From IMG/VR virus record IMGVR_UViG_3300028029_000006, positions 312,236 to 376,235 of that record: a DNA stretch of 64,000 bases; one strand, 5' to 3'. Numbering within the stretch: position 1 is the first letter of the stretch; each line of letters starts with the position of its first letter. Position numbers and translations under genes: made by a program. Positions 5,192-60,687 of this stretch are shown piece by piece. Source of the DNA: a virus. Below the pieces are notes generated by a model. That model was not told the DNA's origin. It ran no database searches and saw only the letters and a program-made list of their open reading frames with translations.

Positions 5192-6340
5192 ATGATTCTT
5201 GAAGTACAGAAGTTTTTACATAACAACGGATTAGATAAACTTCAATCCGATTATTCAATTATAGCCAGACGCCATTCAGAATATAATAATCTTATATGTT
5301 TAAAATATAATATGATTGATTCTCCAATGGCAAAAACCATTTCGCAAGAATGTAGAGGTCTTATTCTTGATGAAGATAATGATTGGTCAATTGTATCTTA
5401 TCCATTCAATAAATTCTTCAACTCAGCCGAAGGGTTAGCAGATAGCATTGATTGGAATACAGCTAAAGTAGTTGAAAAATGTGATGGCTCTTTGATGACA
5501 TTGTATCACTATGATAATAAATGGCATGTTCAATCATCTGGTACTGCAGATGCAGTTGGCCCGCTTAATACAGATATTCCTTGGAGAGAAGATGGTAAGT
5601 TAGTGACATTATCACCAAATAGTTTTGCTTCTTACTTTTGGAAAATTGCAACTTTAACTAAAATGGATATTAATCCTTTAATGAAAAGCATTCCAACTGA
5701 TATGTGTTTTATGTTTGAGGTAATGGGCCCGTTAAATAGAATTATTGTTAGACATGATATAAGTAAAATTGTATTAATTGGTGCTAGAAATATTAAAACC
5801 GGAAAAGAATTAACAGTTGAAGATGCTGTCAAGTTATTACCTGGAAACGTTCCAATTGTCAAAACTTATTCTTTAAAGACAATGGAAGATATTAATACGA
5901 GTCTACCTAACATAAACCCTTTAGATCAAGAAGGTTATGTTGTTTTGGATGCTGAGTTTAATCGTGTTAAAGTTAAAGCTCCAGCATATGTTGCTATGCA
6001 TCATGCTAAAGGTAACGAAGTAACTTTCAAAAAACTATTGGCTATTGCTGTAGCAGGTGAAAATGATGAATGGGTTGCTTATTTTGATGAGCATAAAGAG
6101 GATATGGCTATAGTTAGAAATGGATTGAGTGATTTGATTTTTGAAGTTGAAAGTGATTATAAGGAAATAATTTCTGAGGTTGGAGGTGAAGCAACAGCAA
6201 AAGAATTTGCAATGTTAGCCAAAAATACTCGTTGTCCTAGTGCGCTTTTCGCTTTTCGTTCTGGAAAAATTGATTCAATTAAAAGTTATATTAGGAATAT
6301 TAGACTTGATAGTTTGATTAGTTTAATTGATTTTGATTAA
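5192..6340 (+). CDS. RNA ligase, T4 Rnl1-like
   Basis: ECRGLIL, PFNKFFN, motif I EKCDGS, FMFE, EGYVV, RVKVK. Confidence 0.9.
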   Translation: MILEVQKFLHNNGLDKLQSDYSIIARRHSEYNNLICLKYNMIDSPMAKTISQECRGLILDEDNDWSIVSYPFNKFFNSAEGLADSIDWNTAKVVEKCDGSLMTLYHYDNKWHVQSSGTADAVGPLNTDIPWREDGKLVTLSPNSFASYFWKIATLTKMDINPLMKSIPTDMCFMFEVMGPLNRIIVRHDISKIVLIGARNIKTGKELTVEDAVKLLPGNVPIVKTYSLKTMEDINTSLPNINPLDQEGYVVLDAEFNRVKVKAPAYVAMHHAKGNEVTFKKLLAIAVAGENDEWVAYFDEHKEDMAIVRNGLSDLIFEVESDYKEIISEVGGEATAKEFAMLAKNTRCPSALFAFRSGKIDSIKSYIRNIRLDSLISLIDFD

Positions 6341-11996: not shown

Positions 11997-12464
11997 AAAA
12001 AAATAATTAAAATAATTGCCAAATTTTATGGTTGCTCAAAGATGAGGTTTAATAAAGAGGGTAAATTAAAAAAGAAATCCAAAAAAGAATTTACAGAATC
12101 TTATAAAGTTAATTGGATGGATGTATCTAAATATAACTTATTATCAGAAGATTTCATTAGAGAATTTAAAGATCATGTAAATTGGGAATATATATCTATA
12201 AATTAAATATTATCAGAAGTATTTGTTAGAGAATTTCAAGATAAAGTAGATTTGAGAGTTATACTTTGTTATCAAGAATTATCAGAATATTTTATTAGAG
12301 AATTTCAAGATAATGTATATTGGAATGATATCTCTCGTTATCAGAAATTATCTGAAGAGTTCATAAGAGAATTTCAAGATAAAGTAGATTGGGTTTATAT
12401 ATTTGAATATCAAAAATTATCTGATAAGTTTAAGCTTGAATTTAAAGAAAGATTAAAAAAATGA
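11993..12464 (+). pseudogene. Disrupted 23-aa Trp-repeat gene
   Basis: Family leader out of frame after an A8 run; in-frame TAA at 12204 where paralogs have CAA (SINQILS). Confidence 0.65.
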
Positions 12465-14665
12465 AATTTAATTTAAAAGACAGAACAATATTATTAACTG
12501 TTGCCGGTTCAAGAGCTTACGGAATTAGCACTCCAGAATCTGATATTGACATTAAAGGAGTAGCAGTACCAACCAAAGAATATTTTCTAGGTTACATTAA
12601 TAAATTTGAACAAGCAGACAAATCATCTCATTTAACATGTTTCCTACCTTTATTTTCAGATGATGAACGTGATATTATTTCAAGAACCAAATTAGAAGGA
12701 TCAGTTTATAACATCAGAAAGTTTATTAAATTAGCCGCAGATGCTAACCCAAATATTCTTGATGCTCTTTTTTGTCGAGAACAAGAAGTAAGATTGCAAA
12801 CTAAAGCAGGTAAACTTCTTAGAGAAAATAGAGATCTTTTTATATCCAAAAAAGCTAGATGGACTTTCAATGGGTATGCAAAAAGTCAGCTAAAAAGAAT
12901 TAAAACTCATAGGAAGTATTTATTGAATCCTATGACTCATAAACCGACAAGAGATGAATTCAACCTTCCTCCTACCTCTAAAATTCCTAAAGAACAATTG
13001 AATGCAGCTTTTTCTGCTGTTAAAAAACAAATTGATAATTGGGAAATTGATTATAATGAGTTAGATGAGTCAACTAAAATGTATATTGAAAGACAAATTA
13101 GTGACTTGTTAACTGAAATCTCAGTTGCTTCTAATGAAAAATTTGCTGCGGCTGCTAGACTTGTTGGTTATAGTGATAACTTCATTCATCTTCTTAAAAA
13201 AGAAAGAGAATTTAAAGTTGCTTCTACTCAATGGGTTCAATATAATGATTGGAAAAAGAACAGAAACCCTTTGAGAGCGGCAGATGAAAAGAAGTACGGG
13301 TATGATTGTTATACTGATGATACAGAATTTTTAACTAAAAATGGTTGGAAAAATTTTGATTATGTAGAAGAAGAAGATGAGCTAGCAACAGTTTATATTG
13401 GGGAGGATCTTACTAATAGGAAATTTGGTAAAATAGAGTATCAAAAATATAAAGATAAGTTTCAGGGTGTTTTTTCTGGAGATTTGTACAATTTGTTTGG
13501 GTATCATATTGATACATTAGTGACGCCGAATCATAGAATGTTAATTAGAAAAGTAGAAAGAAAATCTAATAAAAAATATGATTGGCATTTATGTGAAATG
13601 GCAAATTTACCAGATACATTTGAAATAATGATGTCTCCAGTATCAAATAATAAAAATTATTCTAATAAAGATTATTTTAATGATATAAACATTAAACCTG
13701 AACCATTTATGAGATTAATGGGTTGGTATCTATCAGACGGAACAGCTGGTTTTAATTATAATAAAGATAATGTTAAAACAGTTAAAGTAATTACTATTTC
13801 TCAAAAAAAAGGGGGAGATTTGTGTCATAGCATGCTTAGGTTTGCTAATAAATATAAAAATGAAGCTAGCTGTTCATTATATAAATATATAAATAAAGGT
13901 GATGGAAAATTTAGGGATTTTCCCATTGAAGAACATAGATTATCTGTTAGAGATAAAAACATTATTAATAAGTTATATTTAGGTTGTGGCCATGGCTCCC
14001 ATAATAAAAGAATTCCTAGATGGGTGTTTTCTTTATCAAAAAGGCTTAAAGTGATTTTGATTGATGCTATGGTAGCTGGAGATGGTACTATTAGAAAATG
14101 TGGTTTTAAAAGTATAATTTACTATTCTTCATCTAGAGATTTGGCCAGTGATATACAAGAATTATCTATGAGTTGTGGTTTTGAAACATCTTTATATGGT
14201 CCTTATGAGTCTGATAATAAAGGTTATTATACTCTTATGTATCAAGTTCATATTAATAAAAAAGCCCCACAAATTAAAAAAATGGTTAGAGCAAGAAATG
14301 TAAAAAAAATACCTATTAAAAATCAAAGAATCGTATGTTTTACAGTTCCAAATGGAACGTTGATTACTAGACGTAATGGGCATATAGGAATTCATGGCAA
14401 CTCAAAACATGGTGGGCACCTTTTTAGACTTTTAAAAATGGCAAGAGAAATTCTTGTTGATGGCAAAGTAAATATTTGGCGAGAAGACGCGGAAGAGATT
14501 TTGGCCGTTCGAAATGGCGAATGGTCTTATGAAAAATTGGTTGACTTTGCAGAATCTGAAGATAAAGAGATGCAAAAGTTATATAATGATTCAAAGCTAC
14601 CAAACACACCAGATCAAAAAAAGATTGATGAGCTGTGCATTGAAATTGTGGAGAGTATGTTGTGA
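12461..14665 (+). CDS. Pol-beta superfamily nucleotidyltransferase (RlaP/YcgL-like) containing an intein
   Basis: GSRAYG...SDIDIKGV, NPNILD; extein junction GYD/SKHGGHLFRLL. Confidence 0.85.
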   Translation: MKFNLKDRTILLTVAGSRAYGISTPESDIDIKGVAVPTKEYFLGYINKFEQADKSSHLTCFLPLFSDDERDIISRTKLEGSVYNIRKFIKLAADANPNILDALFCREQEVRLQTKAGKLLRENRDLFISKKARWTFNGYAKSQLKRIKTHRKYLLNPMTHKPTRDEFNLPPTSKIPKEQLNAAFSAVKKQIDNWEIDYNELDESTKMYIERQISDLLTEISVASNEKFAAAARLVGYSDNFIHLLKKEREFKVASTQWVQYNDWKKNRNPLRAADEKKYGYDCYTDDTEFLTKNGWKNFDYVEEEDELATVYIGEDLTNRKFGKIEYQKYKDKFQGVFSGDLYNLFGYHIDTLVTPNHRMLIRKVERKSNKKYDWHLCEMANLPDTFEIMMSPVSNNKNYSNKDYFNDINIKPEPFMRLMGWYLSDGTAGFNYNKDNVKTVKVITISQKKGGDLCHSMLRFANKYKNEASCSLYKYINKGDGKFRDFPIEEHRLSVRDKNIINKLYLGCGHGSHNKRIPRWVFSLSKRLKVILIDAMVAGDGTIRKCGFKSIIYYSSSRDLASDIQELSMSCGFETSLYGPYESDNKGYYTLMYQVHINKKAPQIKKMVRARNVKKIPIKNQRIVCFTVPNGTLITRRNGHIGIHGNSKHGGHLFRLLKMAREILVDGKVNIWREDAEEILAVRNGEWSYEKLVDFAESEDKEMQKLYNDSKLPNTPDQKKIDELCIEIVESML
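13307..14401 (+). mobile_element. Intein (365 aa) with LAGLIDADG homing endonuclease
   Basis: Starts CYTDDTEFLTKNGW, block B VTPNHRM, endonuclease motifs LMGWYLSDG and IDAMVAGDG, ends IHGN followed by Ser+1. Confidence 0.93.
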
Positions 14666-14967: not shown

Positions 14968-15708
14968 ATGAAAAGAAGAGGGTTTTTAAAAAACTTAGGT
15001 TTAACTTCTATTTTGGCAGGACCTGTATTAGCCTCTAAAGTGGTGGAAGCTATTACGATTGAAAAGAAAACAATTAAGAATGACTCTCCAGAGCCGCTTG
15101 CTTACCCAGAATATGATGAAAAACTAAAGATTTTAGAAGATGTTGGTATTATTTCTAATCTTGTTAATATTGATATTATATCTAAAACTATAAGTATATC
15201 AAAACCTTATAATTTCGATTATATTTCAGGTTTATCATTTTATAGATATATAATGGATCTGTTTAATGACGCTAAGTATTTAGTTGAAGCAATCCCAATG
15301 TTACATCATACAGATAGTATATTTGAAATGTTTAATGGATGGAAACTTTACGGTATAAATAGTTTATCTAGTTTTTCGGTTAAATGTTCTGATAAGCTTC
15401 ATTATATGAATGTGTGGAGTTGTGGTAATATGCCTAAAAATGCTAAATGTAAATGGCAGGTAATTGAAAATGGTTATATTTTTGATGAAGGGCGTTTTTC
15501 TAAAAAAGGTAATTTTAATGAACCAATCAGAGTTCCTAGTAACACAAAGGATGTTTCAGTGAAAATTTATTATTCATTAAATGAAAGACAATATGATGAA
15601 ATTATTTTTCCTCTAAATGGATCTGTTCAAGGATCCTTTGCTTTTCCATTTTTTGTAAAAGATAGAGCAAGAGAAAAATGGTTTAAGGAAATTTCCTCTG
15701 CCACTTGA
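14968..15708 (+). CDS. Hypothetical protein with twin-arginine signal peptide
   Basis: MKRRGFLKNLGLTSILAGPVLA; strong RBS GAGGAGG. Confidence 0.6.
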   Translation: MKRRGFLKNLGLTSILAGPVLASKVVEAITIEKKTIKNDSPEPLAYPEYDEKLKILEDVGIISNLVNIDIISKTISISKPYNFDYISGLSFYRYIMDLFNDAKYLVEAIPMLHHTDSIFEMFNGWKLYGINSLSSFSVKCSDKLHYMNVWSCGNMPKNAKCKWQVIENGYIFDEGRFSKKGNFNEPIRVPSNTKDVSVKIYYSLNERQYDEIIFPLNGSVQGSFAFPFFVKDRAREKWFKEISSAT

Positions 15709-15732
15709 CGCCTCACAGATGATGATTAAAAT
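15705..15732 (+). promoter_or_regulatory. Sigma70-like promoter
   Basis: TTGACG-16 nt-TAAAAT directly before ATG 15739. Confidence 0.6.
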
Positions 15733-15738
15733 ATCATC

Positions 15739-16383
15739 ATGACACGTATATTTTTATCACTTCTAGTCGCGGCATTATGCCTCAACTCACAAGCTGTTAA
15801 CAAGGCTTTTGCATCTCCTACCGGTGGTAGCATGGAGCCGACCCAGGAAGAGCGTTTAAACAACCCCCAAGCTCTTTCTGGCCCATGCTCACACGTCAGC
15901 ATCATCGAATGGAGAAGCACAAGGGGGAAAGCCGGTTCTGAAATTAATAAAAAAAATATTGCTATCTTAAAAAAGACTTGTAAATTGGTAGTGAATAATT
16001 TTGAATCATTCATTAAACAAAAAAGATTTTATAAATTTAAAGGAGATGTATCTAAATTCAATGTTGAAATTTGTTTAATGCCTTTGAATTCTAAATCAAG
16101 AAATTTAAATGATCTCAAAGGTAGATTTTTAAAACGAGCAGTTCAAGTTCCAGTTTGGGGTTACTATCAATATAGTAGCAATAATATTTATATTAGAAAT
16201 GATGTTATGATTAACAAAAGAGTTAATAAAACATTTGTTAAGGTTTTCGCACATGAATTATTCCATGCAATGAGTTCTCAATTTGAAATTTATGATCAGC
16301 ATTCTTTAGATCCTAAATTAGCGAGTAAATTAGAAGAAAAAATGGCGAGAGATTTTACTGAGTTTATTAAGTTAGGAAGATGA
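15739..16383 (+). CDS. Secreted zincin-like metallopeptidase
   Basis: Signal peptide; FAHELFHA followed by EEKMA. Confidence 0.6.
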   Translation: MTRIFLSLLVAALCLNSQAVNKAFASPTGGSMEPTQEERLNNPQALSGPCSHVSIIEWRSTRGKAGSEINKKNIAILKKTCKLVVNNFESFIKQKRFYKFKGDVSKFNVEICLMPLNSKSRNLNDLKGRFLKRAVQVPVWGYYQYSSNNIYIRNDVMINKRVNKTFVKVFAHELFHAMSSQFEIYDQHSLDPKLASKLEEKMARDFTEFIKLGR

Positions 16384-49216: not shown

Positions 49217-51379
49217 TCAATTGCCATTTTTATAAACTTTTTTAAGCAAATCAGTTGGATCTAATAGTTTCTTCGGTTTATTTTCCATTTTTTCCCATCT
49301 TAATCTGTCTTTTACTCCATGATCATAAAATTCAAAATGAAGCATAGTCATTGGGTTTCCTTTATACCTTTTCATAACTGTAACTACTTTAGCAATTACT
49401 TGGCCTTGTTTAATTTTATCTCCAGGTTCCACCAAAGGTTTAACCTCTCCGTAATTAATAACACCAGATTTCCCTTCAATTAAAATAGCCTGAGTATCAT
49501 TCCACCAACTTGTGCCAACTTTTGATCCAGTAAAATCCAGTACTGTAACTACAATACCATCTTCAATAGCAAGAACTTCAGTGTCAGGCTCGCAATATAA
49601 ATCTACTCCAGAATGAACGTATCCTCGTCTTTGATATCCAAAAGTTCCTGGTTCATTATTAACTGGAATTGGGTAATCTTTAGTTGCTAAAGGCCAAGCA
49701 AGCGATTTATCTTCACTACTATTATAGGCATCTTTCAAGATAAGCGCAACCTCTGGCCTGGTAAATTCTTCAGGAAGATCTTCTCCATTTTCAAGCATTT
49801 TTCTTACTTTAGTTCCACTTAAAAATAATTTTGTTTCAGATCCACCTGGAGCGGTTTTAACACTGCCCATTCCTTTCATCGTCTTTGAATAAAAAGTATG
49901 CTCAAAACATAAAGGAATAATCCCCAATTCTCCAGGAGAAAATTCATCAAAGATTTTTTGAGCATCATAAGTCCCATAATAATCACCTACTCCAGCATGA
50001 TCTCTGCCAACAATAAAATGACTACAACCATAATTTTTCCTACAAATTGCATGATGAATTGCTTCTCTAGGACCAGCATACCTCATTGCTGCAGGGAACA
50101 TTCCTAAAACAACGCTATTCTCTGAATAATAATTGTTAATTAAAGCTTCATAACAAGACATTCTAACATCTGCATCAACATCTCCAGCTTTAGTGGCTCC
50201 AACTAATGGGTGAATTAATAAACCATCACACATTTCTAGTGCACATTTTGTTAAATACTCATGTGCTCTATGCATTGGATTTCTTGTTTGAAAAGCTACA
50301 ATTCTTTTCCATCCTCGCTCTTCAAAAATCCATCGCGTTTCTTTTGGTGAAAAATCACCATTGTCTATATTAAAAATAGAAAAAACATTAACTTCACCAC
50401 CTAAGTAAACATCTCCTACTTTCATAACATAAGAAACTCCAGGATGTTCCATATCAGTTGTTTTGTAAACTTCTTGACATTCTAGCTCTTTATCAGGAGT
50501 AAATTTGTCAGACACAGTCATAGTACCAACAATATTACCACTTAAACCTATTAAGTTAATTAAACTTCTTAATTTGATTTTTCCAGCCTGCTCCTGACTA
50601 ACCGGCAAAACAATAGGTATAGCCCAAGGTAATCCGTTCTCCAAACGCATTTCTTTAACAACTTTTAGATAATCTTTTTCATTCATGAATCCGGTTAAAG
50701 GACTGTAGCCACCTTCGCCAATCATTCGTAAATCACAAGCCGTACGTTCATCTAATGTGACTTTAGTAAAACTAGAAGCAATCGCAAAAATACTTTCTCT
50801 ATTAACCAAAGTTCCTCCATGAGGAGCGATTAAGCCTTTTGTAGTGGTAGTATTTGTATTAATTAACCCTAATTCTTGAAGTTTATTTAAGATTTTATCT
50901 AAAGATTCTTCAGCAGTTTCTGTAAATGTATTTAATGTTATTTCTGGATTAATAGGTTTTTCATAAGGAGCGTCAATTCCAGTAAAACCTTTAATTTCTC
51001 CAGCTAAAGCTTTTTTGTATAAACCTTTTGGATCTCGTTTAATTAATTCGTCAAGTTGACAGTCGCAGTAAACTTCCACAAAGCTACTTACAAGTGCCCT
51101 CTGCGCGGCTCTGACGGCCTTGTAAGGGGAGATTGCAGCAGTGATGGCGCACCCTCCTGAGTTGGCCACTAAACTCGCTACAAAGCCAATGCGGTTGATA
51201 TTAATATCTCTATCTTCTTTTGAGAATCCAAGACCTTTTGATAGATTTTTTCTAACAACATCTCCATCTAGCACTTCTGTATGAATTCCTTGATGTTGTA
51301 ACTTTGCAGATAACATTGCTGCAAGAGTTGATTTTCCTGAACCACTTAAACCTGTAAACCAAATAACAAAACCACTCAT
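49217..51379 (-). CDS. sat: APS kinase - sulfate adenylyltransferase - M23 peptidase triple fusion
   Basis: [12 protein letters not shown] and RDPKGLY (CysC); [12 protein letters not shown] and VGRDHAG (Sat); HSGVD and LHFE (M23). Confidence 0.9.
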
Positions 51380-52094: not shown

Positions 52095-52547
52095 TTAAAT
52101 TAAAACTAATTTATACTTCTTACCATCAACTTCAACCATTTTACCTTCGCAAGTTTCTTGTTTGGGATTCATTTTTTCATTGTATTCTTCTTCAGTGTAG
52201 TTTCGACCTTCCAGGAGCCAAAATTTAGTTCCATCATTACATTCATAAGCTGCACCATCAGTTCTATGTAGTTTCCCATTTACATACCAATACTTTTCTC
52301 CATTATCTAATTCAATTGCTGGTAAATTGTTTTCTCTATGAAGTTTACCATTTACCCACCATTTTTTAACTCCATTTAACCATTCAGCAGCTGGCAAATC
52401 ATTTTCTCTATGAAGTTTACCATTTTTATACCACTCTTTAGTTCCATTTTTAAATTCAATTGCAGGCAAATCATCTTCTCTATGCAACTTGCCATCTAAA
52501 CGCCATTCAGTTACGTGATCATAAACTTTTACTGTATACTCAATCAT
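52095..52547 (-). CDS. GKLHRxxxPA repeat protein
   Basis: Paralog of 48424 with four repeats. Confidence 0.8.
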   Translation of the reverse strand: MIEYTVKVYDHVTEWRLDGKLHREDDLPAIEFKNGTKEWYKNGKLHRENDLPAAEWLNGVKKWWVNGKLHRENNLPAIELDNGEKYWYVNGKLHRTDGAAYECNDGTKFWLLEGRNYTEEEYNEKMNPKQETCEGKMVEVDGKKYKLVLI

Positions 52548-52552
52548 AATAT

Positions 52553-52864
52553 TTAATCCATTTCAACTAATTTATACTTCTTGCCATCAACTTCAATTAT
52601 TTTACCTTCACAAGATTCTTGTTTGGGATTCATTTTTTCATTGTATTCTTCTTCAGTGTAATTAACACCTTTAAGATACCAACCCTTTTTTCCATCTGGC
52701 CATTCCATAGCTGGGCCATTTTCTCTATGACATTCACCATTTACAAACCATTTTTGAGTTCCATCTGTGTATTCTTTTGCTGGTAAATCTCCTTCTCTAT
52801 GAAGTTTTCCATTTAAACGCCAAATAGTATTGTTATCATCAACTTCTACTGTATATTCAATCAT
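52553..52864 (-). CDS. GKLHRxxxPA repeat protein
   Basis: Paralog of 48424 with two repeats. Confidence 0.8.
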   Translation of the reverse strand: MIEYTVEVDDNNTIWRLNGKLHREGDLPAKEYTDGTQKWFVNGECHRENGPAMEWPDGKKGWYLKGVNYTEEEYNEKMNPKQESCEGKIIEVDGKKYKLVEMD

Positions 52865-53161: not shown

Positions 53162-53296
53162 AAGGCATTCGAGTTAAAAATATTGTTTTATGTAATAACA
53201 TACGGGAATTGAACCCGTTACTTTCAGCCTTTTAGGCGGACGCTCTACCAGATGAGCTAATGTTGCTTGTAAATATTTTAAAGGTTTGAATGCCTT
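53162..53296 (-). ncRNA. Complete tRNA-like cloverleaf enclosed by the module stem (element B)
   Basis: AAGGCATTC/GAATGCCTT and AAAATATT/AATATTTT stems flank GCAACAT-TA-GCTC..GAGC..CTAAAAG loop..ACGGG-TTCAATT-CCCGT-ATGTTAT. Confidence 0.8.
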
Positions 53297-53357: not shown

Positions 53358-53380
53358 ATTTTAAGATTTATTAAATCTAG

Positions 53381-53453
53381 GAGCGCGAGCAAGATTTGCA
53401 CTTGCGACCTCTAGGTTATGAGCCTAGTGAGCTACTGACTGCTCCATCGCGCG
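53381..53453 (-). tRNA. tRNA-Met(CAT), initiator-like
   Basis: C1:T72 mismatch, GCGCGA/TCGCGC, TGGAGCAG..GTAGCTC, CTAGG-CTCATAA-CCTAG, GCAAG-TGCAAAT-CTTGC. Confidence 0.85.
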
Positions 53454-54645: not shown

Positions 54646-55218
54646 TCAAACCTTTATTGCACCAGCCGGGCTGATTTGGTAGTTAACCATGCGATTATTA
54701 ACAATAAATTCATGTACAGATTGTGCAAAAAAAGATGAAACAATTGCAATAAATGCCAAGTGTTCTCCATTTTCACAGGTTGCGGCACCAGCGGATGGTT
54801 CATGATCAATTTTAAAATGTTGATCCCACATTATTTGTCCAAACTCTCCATTGGCAGCTAAACCTCCATGTAGACAAGGGACATTATTTTGACGAACATA
54901 ATTTTGAACTAGGAGCCGAGCTTCGGCATTATCTAAACAATCAATAATAAGATCTGATTTTTTTAAAAGCATATCTACATTATCACTAGTAAGTTTATGA
55001 GGTATAATATTTAATTTAGTACCAAACATAAATTTCATACTTTGTTGCATTGATTGCACTTTAGATTTTCCAACAGTTTTAACGCTGTGAAATTGGGACA
55101 TAGTATTCGTTTTTTCTACTCTGTCAAAATCAATTATTGTTATATTAATTTCTTCATTTCTAATAAACTGAATAAGATGAGAGCCTAAAGCTCCAACTCC
55201 TACAATTGTTACATTCAT
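54646..55218 (-). CDS. ThiF/E1-like adenylating enzyme
   Basis: IVGVGALGS, IDFDRVE..N..SQ, K, DCLDN...R, single candidate catalytic Cys in ATCE. Confidence 0.92.
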   Translation of the reverse strand: MNVTIVGVGALGSHLIQFIRNEEINITIIDFDRVEKTNTMSQFHSVKTVGKSKVQSMQQSMKFMFGTKLNIIPHKLTSDNVDMLLKKSDLIIDCLDNAEARLLVQNYVRQNNVPCLHGGLAANGEFGQIMWDQHFKIDHEPSAGAATCENGEHLAFIAIVSSFFAQSVHEFIVNNRMVNYQISPAGAIKV

Positions 55219-55243
55219 AATTGAATTTCTTTAATGATTTCGG

Positions 55244-55513
55244 TTACTTGCCGAAGGGCACTTTCGGTCTTAAGCTTATACGATTCATTTGTACATCTTC
55301 AGTTGAAGGAAATCTATCTACTACAAAGTCATTAAAGTCTGCAACTGAATCTGTTGTAATTCCTGGCACATCGCCATTATTAACTGCTTCGGTTGCCCAA
55401 GATTTAATTTCTTCATCTGAAGAGTCAAAATGAACTGGTTGAAGTAAAGTTCCGTTTAATCCTGCAAAAGTAATATTTAAAACTGCTTCTGTTGCTGCTA
55501 ATTCTTCTGTCAT
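55244..55513 (-). CDS. Ubiquitin-like (beta-grasp) protein
   Basis: 89 aa, beta-beta-alpha-beta pattern, C-terminus LRPKVPFG-K, directly upstream of the E1 gene. Confidence 0.7.
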   Translation of the reverse strand: MTEELAATEAVLNITFAGLNGTLLQPVHFDSSDEEIKSWATEAVNNGDVPGITTDSVADFNDFVVDRFPSTEDVQMNRISLRPKVPFGK

Positions 55514-55537
55514 TGTATTTATCCTTTAAAATAATAT

Positions 55538-56001
55538 TTAGGTCATTTGTTTTTTAAATTCTTTTCTGAATTGCTTTGATAGTTTTTGGACCCTATATAT
55601 CCAATACCAATCTACTTTATCTTTAAACTCTCTAATGAAATTTTCAGATAATATTTGATCTATAGATAACACAGTCCAATATAATCTATCTTGAAATTTT
55701 CTAATGAAATCTTCTGATAATTTTTGATTAAAAGATATATTATCCCAATATACTTTATTTTGAAATTCTTTAATGAATTCTTCTGATAATTTTTGGTGAT
55801 AAGATATAGTATCCCAATCTAATTCATTTTTAAACTCTCTAATAAAATCTTCTGATAATTTTTCATATTTAGATATAGTAACCCAGCATATTTTATATTT
55901 GAATTCTTCTCTTAACTTATTTTTTAATTTACCTTTTTTTGTAAACTTCATTTCTGAACAATTATATTCAGAAGCTATTTCTTTTAATTGTTTTTTTTCA
56001 T
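55538..56001 (-). CDS. 23-aa Trp-repeat protein (leader frameshifted in an A8 run)
   Basis: Family leader from ATG 56001; about five repeats. Confidence 0.7.
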
Positions 56002-56004
56002 AAT

Positions 56005-56376
56005 TTAATAATTTGATATTTTACGTAATTCATCAAACCAGTCTGGTTTTTCGGAGACTACATGGTATATGTAATCATATTTTCCTGGTCCTAAGAACCT
56101 TGTGATGATCATATTATCACCACTAATGATGGGCCAGTCAAGCTTTTTTCCTAGTCCAATTTCAACTGCTGAGAATGTTGTAACATCTGTCCAAGAAGGA
56201 GAAGGTATTCCTAAGCCCGGATGGCTATGAGCAAAGCCCGAAATGTTATCTCGATGTTCCCAGATTACGTTCCATAAATCTAAACTATCAGGTAACTCTG
56301 ATATTGATCGATTATGAGGTGTATGAAAATAAAGAGGTTTTCCCTCTAAATCTAATAAAATTCCTGCTTCCATCAT
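56005..56376 (-). CDS. JAB/MPN+ metallo-isopeptidase
   Basis: N-terminal E (MEAG) and HSHP...PSWTD (HxH-x7-S-x2-D). Confidence 0.9.
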   Translation of the reverse strand: MMEAGILLDLEGKPLYFHTPHNRSISELPDSLDLWNVIWEHRDNISGFAHSHPGLGIPSPSWTDVTTFSAVEIGLGKKLDWPIISGDNMIITRFLGPGKYDYIYHVVSEKPDWFDELRKISNY

Positions 56377-56652
56377 GTTTATTTACCTTACCACTCAGAT
56401 GAAGCTAACCAGCCACGACCTTCGCTTTTAACCCAATTTCCAACTGTTTTGTTAATATCTTGATTGGTTTCTTCGTTGCCAATATTTATCATTGTACTAT
56501 TTAATATTAATTCACAATCAATATTTGGAATATCTTCTTCAAGACGTTCCCCTTCATGTTCTTCTAAAACTTTCCACGCATCAATTTTGCTTTTTGCAAT
56601 AACTAATTCTGAATTATATAGCCTAAACATATTTAATTTTTCTTTGTTCATA

Positions 56653-57588
56653 TTAACCTCTTCTATATATAACTAAAACGTCTTTATCAATCGCTTCTTT
56701 AATAACTCCAGGGATACTTTCTAATGTTAACCAAGTATCACCTTTGGTTCCTACTTCAAAATCATTATCATAATCATGTTCTTGTAAACATACTCCAGAA
56801 TCTATAATTCTTAAAGTTGTAGAATGACAAACGCATTCCAATCGTATGTTATTAAATTTATATTTAACAATCATTTCTTGATTTCGAATTCCTTTCCTAT
56901 GATCTAAATAAACAGCTCCTCCAAGGGAAAGAGCAGCGACTGCTGCTTGTCTAAAATCAGTAACGGCTATTTGTCTTCTAATCAATCCAGTACCAAAAGA
57001 ATCTCTCATTTGCTTTTGAAGTGCTTCTTGTCGAATTTTTTCTTCTTGAGCTTTTCTTTGATTTTCTATTTTTATTCTTATATAATTTTCAAATTTAAAA
57101 GCTATATCTAAAGCCGGTGTTACTTCTGAAATATCATCAACATTATCTTTTTGATCTAAAAATGAATTTAAAACCTCATCTTCTGGTCCCAATGGGAATT
57201 CTTCTCCAACAAAAATTAAGGGGCCATTTTCATAAATTCTACCCACTTTTATTCTTGAAAATCTTTCTATGCCAGGTTGAATTAAATAAACGAATTCAAA
57301 ATTAGATGACATTTCTTCAATAGAGAATTTTGTTTGAGTGTCATCTGTTACTAATCTACCACCAACTAAATACCCAGTAATATATTCATAGAATATTTCT
57401 TCATTTGAATCTGATTCAGATTTTAAATTAGCAATTCTGTTTTTAACATAAAAAGTATACCAACCATGTTCTGAAGGTAAAGTTCCTTTAATTTTCCAAG
57501 TGCGATTTTTGGTTTGAAGAGATCTTCCACCTACCCAAGGGATAGATAATAATTCTTCTTTTATTTGCAAATGATCTTGCCAACCCAT
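56653..57588 (-). CDS. Probable E2-like conjugating protein (C-terminal domain)
   Basis: H-x8-GVCL followed by W-LTLESI, resembling E2 H-x-N...GxICL...W...TL; operon context. Confidence 0.5.
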   Translation of the reverse strand: MGWQDHLQIKEELLSIPWVGGRSLQTKNRTWKIKGTLPSEHGWYTFYVKNRIANLKSESDSNEEIFYEYITGYLVGGRLVTDDTQTKFSIEEMSSNFEFVYLIQPGIERFSRIKVGRIYENGPLIFVGEEFPLGPEDEVLNSFLDQKDNVDDISEVTPALDIAFKFENYIRIKIENQRKAQEEKIRQEALQKQMRDSFGTGLIRRQIAVTDFRQAAVAALSLGGAVYLDHRKGIRNQEMIVKYKFNNIRLECVCHSTTLRIIDSGVCLQEHDYDNDFEVGTKGDTWLTLESIPGVIKEAIDKDVLVIYRRG

Positions 57589-57589
57589 T

Positions 57590-58087
57590 TTAATCCTTTA
57601 ATATTCCTTTATGTTTGAACTCTTCAATGAAATCGTTTGATAAATTTTGATATATAGATATATATTTCCATCTTATTTTATCTTGAAATTCTTTAATAAA
57701 ATCTTCTGATAATGTTTGAGAACAAGACACCCATCCCCAATCTAATTTATCTTGAAATTCTCTTATAAAATCTTCAGATAAATTCTGATAAATAGATATA
57801 TTAAACCAATCTACTTTATCTTTGAATTCCCTAATGAAATTTTCAGATATTTTTTGATAAAAAGATATTTCATACCAATCTACTTTATCTTGAAACTCTC
57901 TAATAAATTCCTCAGATAAAATTGATCTACTAGATATGTCATACCAAATTAATTCATATTGAAACTCCCTAATAAAATCTTCAGATAAATCTATCTTCTT
58001 AGAAAGGTGCTCCCAATTTATTATTTCAGAATGTTTTTTAAAACAAATTTTATCTTCTTTAGTAAACATTTTAATCTTCTTTTTCAT
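57590..58087 (-). CDS. 23-aa Trp-repeat protein
   Basis: About six LSEDFIREFQDK.DW repeats. Confidence 0.8.
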   Translation of the reverse strand: MKKKIKMFTKEDKICFKKHSEIINWEHLSKKIDLSEDFIREFQYELIWYDISSRSILSEEFIREFQDKVDWYEISFYQKISENFIREFKDKVDWFNISIYQNLSEDFIREFQDKLDWGWVSCSQTLSEDFIKEFQDKIRWKYISIYQNLSNDFIEEFKHKGILKD

Positions 58088-58382
58088 TGAATTCTTTATG
58101 AAAATCGGTGGGTAATTTTTGATATCTCTGCACCCAATACCACACCATTTTATCTTGAAACTCTCTTATGAAATTTTCTGATAACGTTTGGTTTAAAGAT
58201 ATATTGTGCCAATGTACTTTATCTTGAAATTCTCTAATAAAATTTTCTGATAACGTTTGATATTCAGATATTTCATTCCACCAAACGTTATCTTTGAATT
58301 CTCTTATAAAATCTTCTGGTAATTCTTGAAGAGATAGGCGTTTCCAATCAATTACGTTTTTAAATTCTTTAAAAAAACCCAT
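58071..58382 (-). CDS. 23-aa Trp-repeat protein (5' end probably frameshifted)
   Basis: About four repeats; homopolymer-rich upstream region. Confidence 0.7.
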   Translation of the reverse strand: MGFFKEFKNVIDWKRLSLQELPEDFIREFKDNVWWNEISEYQTLSENFIREFQDKVHWHNISLNQTLSENFIREFQDKMVWYWVQRYQKLPTDFHKEFNEKED

Positions 58383-58812: not shown

Positions 58813-60687
58813 TTATGCCACCCACATTGGACGTTCCAATAATTCAGTCTTCATAATCAATTCAGCCAAAGAAACTCTCTTCTGAACAACTCTACCAATA
58901 GCTTCACGATTAACTGGAGTTGATTGAATTAATGCAGACAATGTTCTTGGAAGCTGATAAACGTCTCCAAAAATATTTTCATCAATCATAAAACAAGGAA
59001 TCCCTAAATTAGTAGCAGTATTTTGTACCGCAAACCTATTATAACCCCAACCTCCGTCAACCTTCAAAAAACCGAAAGCAACAGGATTTAAACCAGATTT
59101 ATTAACCGCTCCTTGAAAATCAGCAGCACCCTCATCTCCAATAAAGATAAAAAGAACATCTTCATCTACACTTGGCTTATTATGTTGTAGAGCCCGAACA
59201 CCACTTCCATAATCTGTACCACCTCCAGCACTGTAATTACTAAAAGCTTGACGAACTCCAACACCAGTTGAGCTTCTTAATTTAACTTCCTGACCCATAG
59301 TATTGAAGACAGAAATGTGAATTTTATCCATAGGAAACGCTTGTAAAAACTTTTCCAAATAAACTTTAGCTTGCTCAATTGCACCTTGCATAGAACCAGA
59401 GATATCAACCATAAAGTAAATTCTGATATTATCCATCTCCTTTTCAACAGCCGCCTTAACAGCCGTATCAGCAGCTTCTTGAAGTTTATCCTTCGTGCTT
59501 TGATTTTTAACACGGGAAGCAATGTTAGCAGCCCTTGTGTCAGTTGCAGTTTTCATTGCAGCTTCCCAGCGATTTTTAACTTCAGGATCTTGCAAAAGAC
59601 CTAACTCTTCCAATGTCGGAGTTAGAATAATTAAATCCTTATCTGAAAGGCAATGAGCCTCAATTGAAGCTGCAACAATTGCTCGTGTCAACCCAACACT
59701 AGCTGGAACCATACCAACAATGCGCTTATAACTCAGAGGATTCTTAACAATTCGCTCACAAATTTCAGCTTCAGAAAGACCTTCCCATGTCTCAGCTGTT
59801 GCTACAGCCTTACCAATAGCTATTTCACGTCTACCATCTTTGGCTTGAGCCTGCTTCCACCGCAAAGTTTCGAAGTATTTTGGACTAGAAGGCTTGTAAC
59901 CAACTCGTCTTGATAGTTCCATCACAGTTTTGCGAAAACCAGCTTTAACCAAACCATTTAAAAGCTTAGAATTATCTTCACGATAACGAATCCACTTTTC
60001 AACCGCTTTGTGCCAACGACCATAAAATGGCTTGCGAGCAGACCGCCCAAATCCAAGATCGCGATTAATTTCAGCAATCTCAGGAAGAGAAAGTAAATCA
60101 TGAATTCGAAGAAGAAGTTTAGGGTTTAGATCTTTCTTATCTTTACGATCAACAGTTAGAATCATGGCTTCGCCAACATCACGAAAATCATCATCAAAGA
60201 AAACAACTTCTCCATTTTCTTTAATCGGAATTCCTTTGCGATTTTGAACAAGCATCAAAGCTGCCAAAACAACTTTAAGATCTCGATGGTCTTGTGTAAA
60301 AGCGTAGGATGCCCAGCGGGCCGAAAATTCATTATTCATTTTCCAAACGTCAGCAGCTTGCTTATACATCCACGCTGCGACCTCAGGATACAATCCGGGT
60401 TTACGATATTCACCAACTTTTCGCGCACCATCTTGAACGGAATTATCATCTTGCAATTCTCCCATTCTAGTTTGGTGAACTTTTCGCCCAATTTTATTAA
60501 GACTATAAACAATTTTCTTGCCATCTTCTTCTTTATGAGTAACCGGAATCCACTTAACTCCAATTGGGCTGGTAGCATCTGGAATAACTACACCACACCT
60601 TCCATGATAAAGATGGTCTGTGTAAGATAATAGCATATTGATGGTCCGTTCTGCAGGACCGAGTGTTTCTGTTGTTGTATTGGGCAT
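58813..60687 (-). CDS. Divergent Ro60/TROVE-like protein with C-terminal vWA domain
   Basis: Helical N-domain with RWHKAVEKW, MELSRRVGYKP and ETWEGLS (Ro60-like); vWA MIDAS VDISGSM, GGTD, FIGDE. Confidence 0.72.
   Translation of the reverse strand: MPNTTTETLGPAERTINMLLSYTDHLYHGRCGVVIPDATSPIGVKWIPVTHKEEDGKKIVYSLNKIGRKVHQTRMGELQDDNSVQDGARKVGEYRKPGLYPEVAAWMYKQAADVWKMNNEFSARWASYAFTQDHRDLKVVLAALMLVQNRKGIPIKENGEVVFFDDDFRDVGEAMILTVDRKDKKDLNPKLLLRIHDLLSLPEIAEINRDLGFGRSARKPFYGRWHKAVEKWIRYREDNSKLLNGLVKAGFRKTVMELSRRVGYKPSSPKYFETLRWKQAQAKDGRREIAIGKAVATAETWEGLSEAEICERIVKNPLSYKRIVGMVPASVGLTRAIVAASIEAHCLSDKDLIILTPTLEELGLLQDPEVKNRWEAAMKTATDTRAANIASRVKNQSTKDKLQEAADTAVKAAVEKEMDNIRIYFMVDISGSMQGAIEQAKVYLEKFLQAFPMDKIHISVFNTMGQEVKLRSSTGVGVRQAFSNYSAGGGTDYGSGVRALQHNKPSVDEDVLFIFIGDEGAADFQGAVNKSGLNPVAFGFLKVDGGWGYNRFAVQNTATNLGIPCFMIDENIFGDVYQLPRTLSALIQSTPVNREAIGRVVQKRVSLAELIMKTELLERPMWVA

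Follow-up and report, generated by a model that had tools for sequence, protein, structure and literature searches.

A five-gene ubiquitin-like module in the tRNA arrays of huge phages, and a candidate E2-like role for its p311 protein

How might a huge phage mature, activate and pass on a ubiquitin-like protein (Ubl), and to what end? The question is raised by a group of genes on the minus strand of the IMG/VR virus record IMGVR_UViG_3300028029_000006 (409,147 bp, about 31% G+C, estimated to be 96% complete). Bases 312236–376235 of this record, 64,000 nucleotides in all, were analysed and are referred to as the window; positions are counted from its first base. An initial annotation had described, at 54646–57588, a compact set of genes for an activating enzyme (E1), a Ubl, a JAB metalloprotease and possibly a conjugating enzyme (E2). 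All four open reading frames (ORFs) are present there on the minus strand, and those for E1, Ubl and JAB are genuine; the E2 identity of the 311-residue protein, hereafter p311, is unproven. The annotation overlooked a vWA gene at 58813–60687, the bacterial copies of the cassette and its embedding in tRNA arrays.

We tentatively read the region, with slightly more doubt than confidence, as the enzymatic core of a five-gene Ubl module lying in tRNA arrays, with p311 as an E2-like relay. According to this reading, the Ubl would be made as a precursor (ending PFG-K in the window), which the JAB metalloprotease would cut after the conserved Gly. The minimal ThiF/MoeB-type E1 would adenylate the exposed Gly carboxylate and may load the Ubl onto its Cys148. 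The Ubl would then pass to Cys267 of p311, an E2-like carrier or ligase held at an RNA-protein complex by its OB-like domains and its partner vWA protein, and would finally be conjugated to a target within that complex or close to it.

The five-gene cassette and its setting

The five genes occur in a fixed order (vWA624, p311, JAB, Ubl, E1) in 42–45 of the 45 huge-phage loci obtained by a scan of IMG/VR, as seen by tblastn with the window proteins, and in the same order in 26 further bacterial loci from a scan of one genome per prokaryotic species. The bacterial carriers are mostly Myxococcota, including the isolate Paraliomyxa miuraensis, together with Verrucomicrobiota and further phyla, and bacterial and viral rows are intermixed on the p311 tree. 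When all ORFs of the 71 loci are clustered, only five conserved families are obtained, each present in 62–70 loci. Domains, catalytic motifs and gene linkage are plain. E1, Ubl, JAB and p311 have 40–60% amino-acid identity across the 71 other loci, a conservation far beyond chance. The fifth and best-conserved member, vWA624 (624 residues; 58813–60687, minus strand), is 47–64% identical in 65 loci. Homologues of p311 number more than 341 at 90% clustering; none is annotated, and many lie on contigs of 200–475 kb.

A protein search of deposited records yielded one with the cassette, Virus Rctr197k (GenBank), in which the genes are annotated as hypothetical or 'similar to hypothetical'. The literature searched, on prokaryotic Ubl systems, on jumbo phages, on conflict systems and on Ro60, covers related Ubl operons, jumbo-phage Ro/TROVE genes and vWA conflict systems but contains no description of the cassette. 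A preprint on Asgard viruses reports viruses that have both a Ro60 gene and ThiF-like genes, with no link drawn between the two. The five-gene module, widespread in huge phages and some bacteria, is apparently hitherto undescribed.

Nearly all the cassettes are embedded in tRNA gene arrays of the same strand: in 61 non-redundant loci, 625 of the 629 tRNA calls made by ARAGORN are on the cassette strand. A tRNA lies within 300 nucleotides upstream of the vWA gene in 20 of 54 loci, and 37 of 54 have a same-strand tRNA or tRNA-like call no more than 1.5 kb downstream of E1. In Virus Rctr197k, an array of 31 tRNAs runs into the cassette. The window has two tRNA or tRNA-like genes downstream of the cassette on the minus strand, Phe(aaa) at 53192–53267 and Met(cat) at 53380–53453 (ARAGORN and Rfam). 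Several of the downstream calls carry A34 anticodons, namely Phe-aaa in the window and Val-aac, Asp-atc and Ile-aat elsewhere (loci L012, L018, L025, L028, L040, L044 and L058). Anticodons of these types with A34 are not normally used by bacteria, which suggests tRNA look-alikes rather than decoding tRNAs. Near the cassette, Rfam finds only tRNAs, and no Y RNA family. As a separate observation, the tRNA array flanking the cassette in a 452-kb phage contig (L020) contains a tmRNA gene at 15517–15877, with the tag peptide ANDNSIADRLVA.

The vWA624 protein consists of a large N-terminal domain followed by a C-terminal vWA domain (VWA_2, 5.8e-6, residues 424–501), and the D-x-S-x-S residues of its MIDAS (D428, S430 and S432) are invariant. 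This layout, with tRNA-like genes adjacent, is like that of Ro60/Rsr with its Y RNAs (PMC4201824), a system also reported from phages (PMC12135203). Unlike Ro60, vWA624 has no match to Pfam TROVE at E up to 1, and its profile-profile alignment (hhalign) with six TROVE proteins, though colinear over 268 columns, is weak (P 0.041, probability 1.3%). Its feature neighbours in the ESM Atlas include TROVE clusters at 0.91–0.93. A Ro60-like ring in the N-terminal domain is possible. We know of no Ro60 system that includes a Ubl cascade.

Maturation and activation of the Ubl

The Ubl precursor (89 residues; 55244–55513, minus strand) is recognized by its conserved C-terminus and its structural neighbours. 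It ends in RPKVPFG followed by one Lys, and in 70 homologues a conserved RPKxPFG is followed by 0–61 variable residues. G88, R82, P83 and E42 are universal in 65 homologues, and F87 is kept in 64 of them, so that the terminus of the family is Phe-Gly and not Gly-Gly. No hidden Markov model in Pfam, NCBIfam, PHROGs or PADLOC matches the protein. The named neighbours of its ESM Atlas model (pLDDT 0.72) are FERM_N/RA, PB1 and DUF348 (TM 0.50–0.59), all of them beta-grasp domains.

The probable trimming enzyme of this precursor is a minimal JAB/JAMM metalloprotease of 123 residues (56005–56376, minus strand). Its JAMM residues, E3, H50-x-H52 and S61-x-x-D64, are kept in 58–59 of 59 homologues, with a spacing of 8 residues, not 7, between H52 and S61. 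The match to Pfam Prok-JAB (PF14464) is 21.8 bits, under the cut-off of 25, and a profile search of the PDB gives a weak match to the JAMM region of Rpn11 (E 0.036).

The initial annotation had argued that a Ubl ending in G-K would need trimming, and the distribution of the JAB gene backs this. In all nine cassettes that lack JAB, all of them bacterial, the Ubl stops exactly at the conserved Gly, while among the 61 cassettes with JAB, 49 encode Ubls with tails of 1–61 residues and 12 are tail-less. The association between JAB absence and a tail-less Ubl is significant (p 4.5e-6, Fisher test, ignoring relatedness). The JAB-less rows fall at no fewer than four places on the p311 tree, kept apart by well-supported branches; JAB was lost at four or more separate places. 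The JAB profile has zero matches in the whole assemblies of five JAB-less genomes, and exactly one match in each of five JAB-positive genomes searched as controls. The JAB status of one JAB-less locus, L052, is less sure, since the locus stops shortly beyond the Ubl. The JAB catalytic residues are kept even in the 12 cassettes with a Ubl that requires no trimming, and a second role of JAB, such as deconjugation, is therefore possible.

Natural fusions place the Ubl ahead of an E1, joined by a linker (P0241), or ahead of a RyR domain (P0242 and P0245), and all of them break at PFG. Such a layout is that of a precursor in need of cleavage, and it also ties the Ubl to E1. The proposed trimming step and the Ubl-E1 partnership are supported by these genomic comparisons. 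Among five metagenomic fusion proteins (P0241, P0242, P0245, P0243 and P0247), the partner of the Ubl is E1, RyR or an unannotated domain of about 100–130 residues.

The E1 (190 residues; 54646–55218, minus strand) is a minimal adenylating enzyme. It matches Pfam ThiF (PF00899) at 1.3e-25, with 90.4 bits against a cut-off of 28.1, over profile positions 22–206 of 238; it begins at the first Rossmann strand and consists of the Rossmann core only. Universal in 61 homologues are G7, G9 and G12 of the GxGxxG loop, D30, K53, the D93-C94-x-D96-N97 motif, R101 and T147-C148. As had been noted before, the sequence contains no CxxC zinc pairs. Its cysteines are C94, C115 and C148; C148 is universal, and T147-C148 aligns with the 'LTC' cysteine of MoeB. 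The position of C148 is that of the crossover-loop cysteine (C184 of ThiF, C187 of MoeB, C250 of UBA5). The closest solved protein is MoeB (4.5e-15), followed by Uba4, TcdA, ThiF, UBA5 and SAE2, with Cap2 farther away (5.6e-6). By homology, the E1 would be expected to adenylate the Gly carboxylate of the Ubl.

The p311 protein and the fate of the activated Ubl

Whether the activated Ubl passes through an E2 depends on p311 (56653–57588, minus strand), a candidate E2-like carrier or adaptor. Its AlphaFold2 model (pLDDT 83.5) has two OB-like beta barrels (residues about 10–135), a long charged helix (158–198) and a C-terminal alpha/beta domain (about 200–311). Nearly every structural match of the N-terminal half is an OB fold, among them the Mpa inter-domain (Z 5.5) and S17, IF1/eIF1A and RNase II (Z 4–5). 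Modelled alone (pLDDT 80.2), the C-terminal domain has two helices, a four-strand meander, a loop with the cysteine, a variable loop and two more helices, an order that, in the model, is compatible with UBC/RWD. Its fold matches include RWD domains at Z 3.5–4.0 (Mcm21 4.0, FANCL 3.5–3.7) and, at Z 3.1, the E2 domain of Cap2.

The argument for an E2-like role centres on the cysteine. The GVCL motif reported by the initial annotation is real, within the sequence L-R-I-I-D-S-G-V-C-L, and the canonical HPN is absent, as was also reported, with the conserved D263 standing in its place. Across homologues down to 25% identity, D263, G265, C267 and L268 are kept in 66–68 of the 68 sequences; C267, present in all 68, is the sole universal cysteine of p311. 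In the AlphaFold2 model, it lies just after the fourth strand of the meander; the catalytic cysteine of E2 enzymes likewise follows the fourth strand. The stretch presumably resembles the E2 signature 'G-S-I-C-L' with the 'S-P' helix start (here 'S-L-P'), which is to be regarded as a lead only. Binding of zinc or of an iron-sulfur cluster by C252, C254 and C267 was considered and rejected, because C267 alone of the three is universal; a metal cluster in p311 is thereby ruled out. In most loci the p311 and vWA genes are directly adjacent, p311 usually starting 10–20 bases after the end of the vWA gene, which suggests that the two proteins work together. Hence, of the earlier E2 assignment, the invariant cysteine in an E2-like context and position stands, and support from a profile or a convincing fold match does not; an E2-like role for p311 is about evenly balanced. 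Beyond these observations, the thioester relay via p311, the nature of the target and a connection with tRNA or tRNA-like RNA are our inferences.

Several findings weigh against the reading of p311 as the relay of a conjugation module. The top structural matches of its C-terminal domain reach only Z 4.3–4.5; the RWD and Cap2 matches score no better than propeller blades, DsbC N-domains and PepSY-like folds, and no canonical UBC chain is among the matches listed. In 35 p311 members, no Pfam E2 family (PF00179, Prok-E2_A to E, RWD) matches at E up to 1, and p311 matches no NCBIfam, PADLOC or PHROGs model, nor any PDB entry by sequence or profile. The E1 is without the N-terminal Arg-finger helix and the C-terminal Zn module of MoeB/ThiF, parts that aid ATP and Ubl binding in other E1s, and its nearest solved relatives belong to sulfur-carrier and tRNA-modifying pathways. 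JAB is dispensable in some lineages, so that deconjugation by JAB is not essential. Finally, no Ubl conjugate or target is known. A profile of the p311 C-terminal domain retrieves, among proteins of 56–233 residues, only fragments of the p311 family. In a search for reference E2 sequences, Prok-E2_B had no match in 151 Myxococcota genomes or in the controls, and the PADLOC E1-E2 model matched once, by its E1 part only.

The strongest rival, which we consider unlikely though worth serious attention, is E2-independent tagging of the kind seen in sampylation or with TtuB, in which E1 alone would activate the JAB-matured Ubl and hand it to targets, and p311, working with the vWA protein, would be an RNA-binding adaptor, a regulator or the main target. 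The E1s of the E2-free SAMP/UbaA and TtuB/TtuC systems are MoeB/Uba4-like, as is the E1 of the cassette. This rival also accords with the lack of a significant E2 match of p311 by sequence or fold, with the resemblance of its N-terminal half to tandem OB folds, and with the coupling of its gene to the vWA gene and not to E1 or Ubl. However, a universal cysteine in a D-x-G-x-C-L loop at such low identity is hard to explain for a pure adaptor, and p311 is a near-constant member of the cassette (70 of 71 loci). Shared with the archaeal SAMP1-3/UbaA/HvJAMM1 and the Thermus TtuB/TtuC systems, the latter with its JAMM peptidase, are a small modifier with Gly at its C-terminus (a beta-grasp protein there and probably so in the cassette), an E1 of MoeB type that carries no large additional domains, a stand-alone JAMM protease and a link to tRNA biology. 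In contrast, the SAMP and TtuB proteins end in Gly-Gly, double as sulfur carriers and have TtuA/Ncs6-type partners, whereas the cassette has a Ubl ending in Phe-Gly plus a tail, no linked sulfur enzymes, an obligatory vWA protein and p311, and a shorter, Zn-free E1 of 190 residues.

A sulfur relay, which the initial annotation had proposed as an alternative, appears improbable. Here the E1-adenylated Ubl would be converted to a thiocarboxylate by a host sulfurtransferase and used for thiolation of nearby tRNAs or for another thio-compound. The solved proteins that best match the E1 (MoeB, Uba4, TcdA, ThiF) and the position of the cassette in tRNA arrays fit such a relay, as does a sat-cysC fusion gene 3.3 kb away in the window. 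Trimming of sulfur carriers by JAB proteases also has precedents, namely QbsD/QbsE and Mec+/CysO, and ThiS, MoaD, CysO, Urm1 and TtuB are known from sulfur-relay pathways. However, no conserved rhodanese, cysteine desulfurase, PP-loop thiolase, ThiG, MoaE, CysM or TtuA/Ncs6 is found near the cassette in the 71 loci, the Ubl ends in Phe-Gly rather than the Gly-Gly typical of sulfur carriers, and the always-present vWA protein and p311 would be left without a role. The sat-cysC gene itself, which had been taken as a hint of sulfur transfer, is not conserved with the cassette (none within 8 kb in any of the 71 other loci), and it was rejected as a functional partner.

It is also conceivable, at a much lower probability, that tagging of proteins is not the function of the Ubl, or not its sole function. 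The E1 adenylate shares its chemistry with an aminoacyl-adenylate and could resolve onto an RNA-linked acceptor, which could be the 3' terminus of a tRNA or tRNA-like RNA bound by the vWA (possibly Ro60-like) protein together with the OB domains of p311, or else the amino group of the amino acid on that RNA. The product would be a tRNA-type molecule with a ubiquitin-like modification. At the least, the Ubl could act as a switch controlling an RNA-surveillance particle that serves the phage's own tRNA arrays. Among known systems, a similar end is found in Atg8/LC3, the precursor of which ends in FG-R and loses its tail to a dedicated protease before activation by E1 (Atg4, Atg7 and Atg3 act in this pathway). 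The cassette Ubl similarly ends in an aromatic residue, Gly and a short tail (FG-K), and the Atg8 example demonstrates that E1 activation of an F-G terminus is possible, as is its transfer to an acceptor other than a protein. Unlike the JAMM enzyme of the cassette, the Atg8 protease is a cysteine protease; the E1 and E2 families of Atg8 are eukaryotic and different, and there is no sequence relationship.

A role in counter-defence or in competition between phages, also raised by the initial annotation, in which the Ubl would tag and disable host defence or rival phage proteins in the manner of Bil or type II CBASS, finds no specific support and is most improbable: the cassette is phage-borne and mobile among lineages, as the intermixed rows of the p311 tree show, and its E1 matches the PADLOC E1-E2 (Cap2) models at 1e-14, but it does so by the E1 part only, the Ubl, JAB and p311 match no PADLOC model, the cassette is also chromosomal in bacteria, with the isolate copy beside biosynthetic genes and a transposase, and what constantly accompanies it is a vWA protein and tRNA genes rather than defence genes.

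Local features, related systems and significance

In the window, the cassette is broken up by local insertions, namely three tryptophan-repeat genes and ORFs of 87 and 82 residues, so that the order of transcription on the minus strand is vWA624, small and repeat ORFs, p311, the 87-residue ORF, JAB, a tryptophan-repeat ORF, Ubl and E1. The tryptophan-repeat gene between JAB and Ubl (55538–55951, minus strand; phrog_3532, 5e-37) is outside the conserved module and has no counterpart at this place in the other loci. The two others (57590–58087 and 58071–58382, minus strand; phrog_3532, 2e-46) lie between p311 and vWA624. The DNA of the repeat genes is 68–72% identical to repeat genes of Bacillus phage G, Listeria phage LPJP1 and Bacillus phage BpSp, and a DNA search of deposited phages gives matches only to these inserted genes and none to the cassette. 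The 87-residue ORF between p311 and JAB (56388–56651, minus strand) is specific to the window; it has no match in Pfam, NCBIfam, PHROGs or PADLOC, and none by tblastn in 71 related loci.

The copy in the Paraliomyxa isolate (L063, 1857–16008) is not in a prophage. It lies between genes for a YcaO cyclodehydratase, flavin halogenases, a ThcOx-like oxidase and a P450, and has one tRNA-like gene and a YhgA-type transposase gene downstream, which suggests that it is a small mobile insertion in a biosynthetic cluster. The 10 flanking ORFs that were scanned around it include no known defence or phage genes.

Other genes of the window are described here for completeness. The sat-cysC gene (49217–51379, minus strand) encodes a 720-residue protein in which APS kinase, a PUA-like domain and ATP sulfurylase are fused to a C-terminal M23 peptidase domain; the joining of a peptidase to a sulfate-activation enzyme is unusual. 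At 52095–52864 (minus strand) are two adjacent genes for MORN-like repeat proteins (WxNGKLHRE repeats) with near-identical C-terminal tails, and the 150-residue protein of this pair has no Pfam match. Two RNA-repair genes are on the plus strand, a T4 Rnl1-type RNA ligase at 5192–6340 and the RNA-repair-pathway nucleotidyltransferase RlaP at 12461–14665; the latter contains a LAGLIDADG domain, possibly an intein.

Two groups of bacterial systems are related to the cassette in their gene content. The class 6d operons (Iyer, Burroughs and Aravind 2006, PMC1779556) and Bil (PMC10557695) likewise have a separate Ubl, E1, JAB and a cysteine protein without HPN, and in these operons JAB is predicted to expose a terminal Gly (PMC1779556, PMC10557695). 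Unlike them, the cassette has a Ubl, JAB and p311 that match no PADLOC or Pfam Prok-E2 model, a new p311 architecture (two OB-like domains, a coiled coil and a cysteine domain), a vWA protein and an association with tRNA arrays. Type II CBASS shares with the cassette a related E1 domain (Cap2), a JAB partner (Cap3) and the activation of a single C-terminal Gly, and the Cap2 E2 domain is, as noted, among the weak fold matches of p311. In contrast to the cassette, Cap2 combines E2 and E1 in one fusion protein and acts on a nucleotidyltransferase rather than on a free Ubl; the cassette has no CD-NTase or effector.

To our knowledge, bacterial and phage ubiquitin-like conjugation has up to now been associated with defence (CBASS, Bil, Bub) or with sulfur chemistry. 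The present module is a widespread and very well conserved Ubl module with different constant companions, namely a vWA protein that is possibly Ro60-like, a new cysteine protein with OB-like domains, and tRNA arrays. Few candidates for a functional Ubl activator are as small as its E1 of 190 residues, and the association of JAB loss with a tail-less Ubl provides a clean, testable rule for the job of the protease. If the conjugation proposed here is true, the module would link ubiquitin-like tagging to the handling of tRNA or non-coding RNA, and would represent a new E2-like or E2-free solution in the evolution of the ubiquitin cascade.

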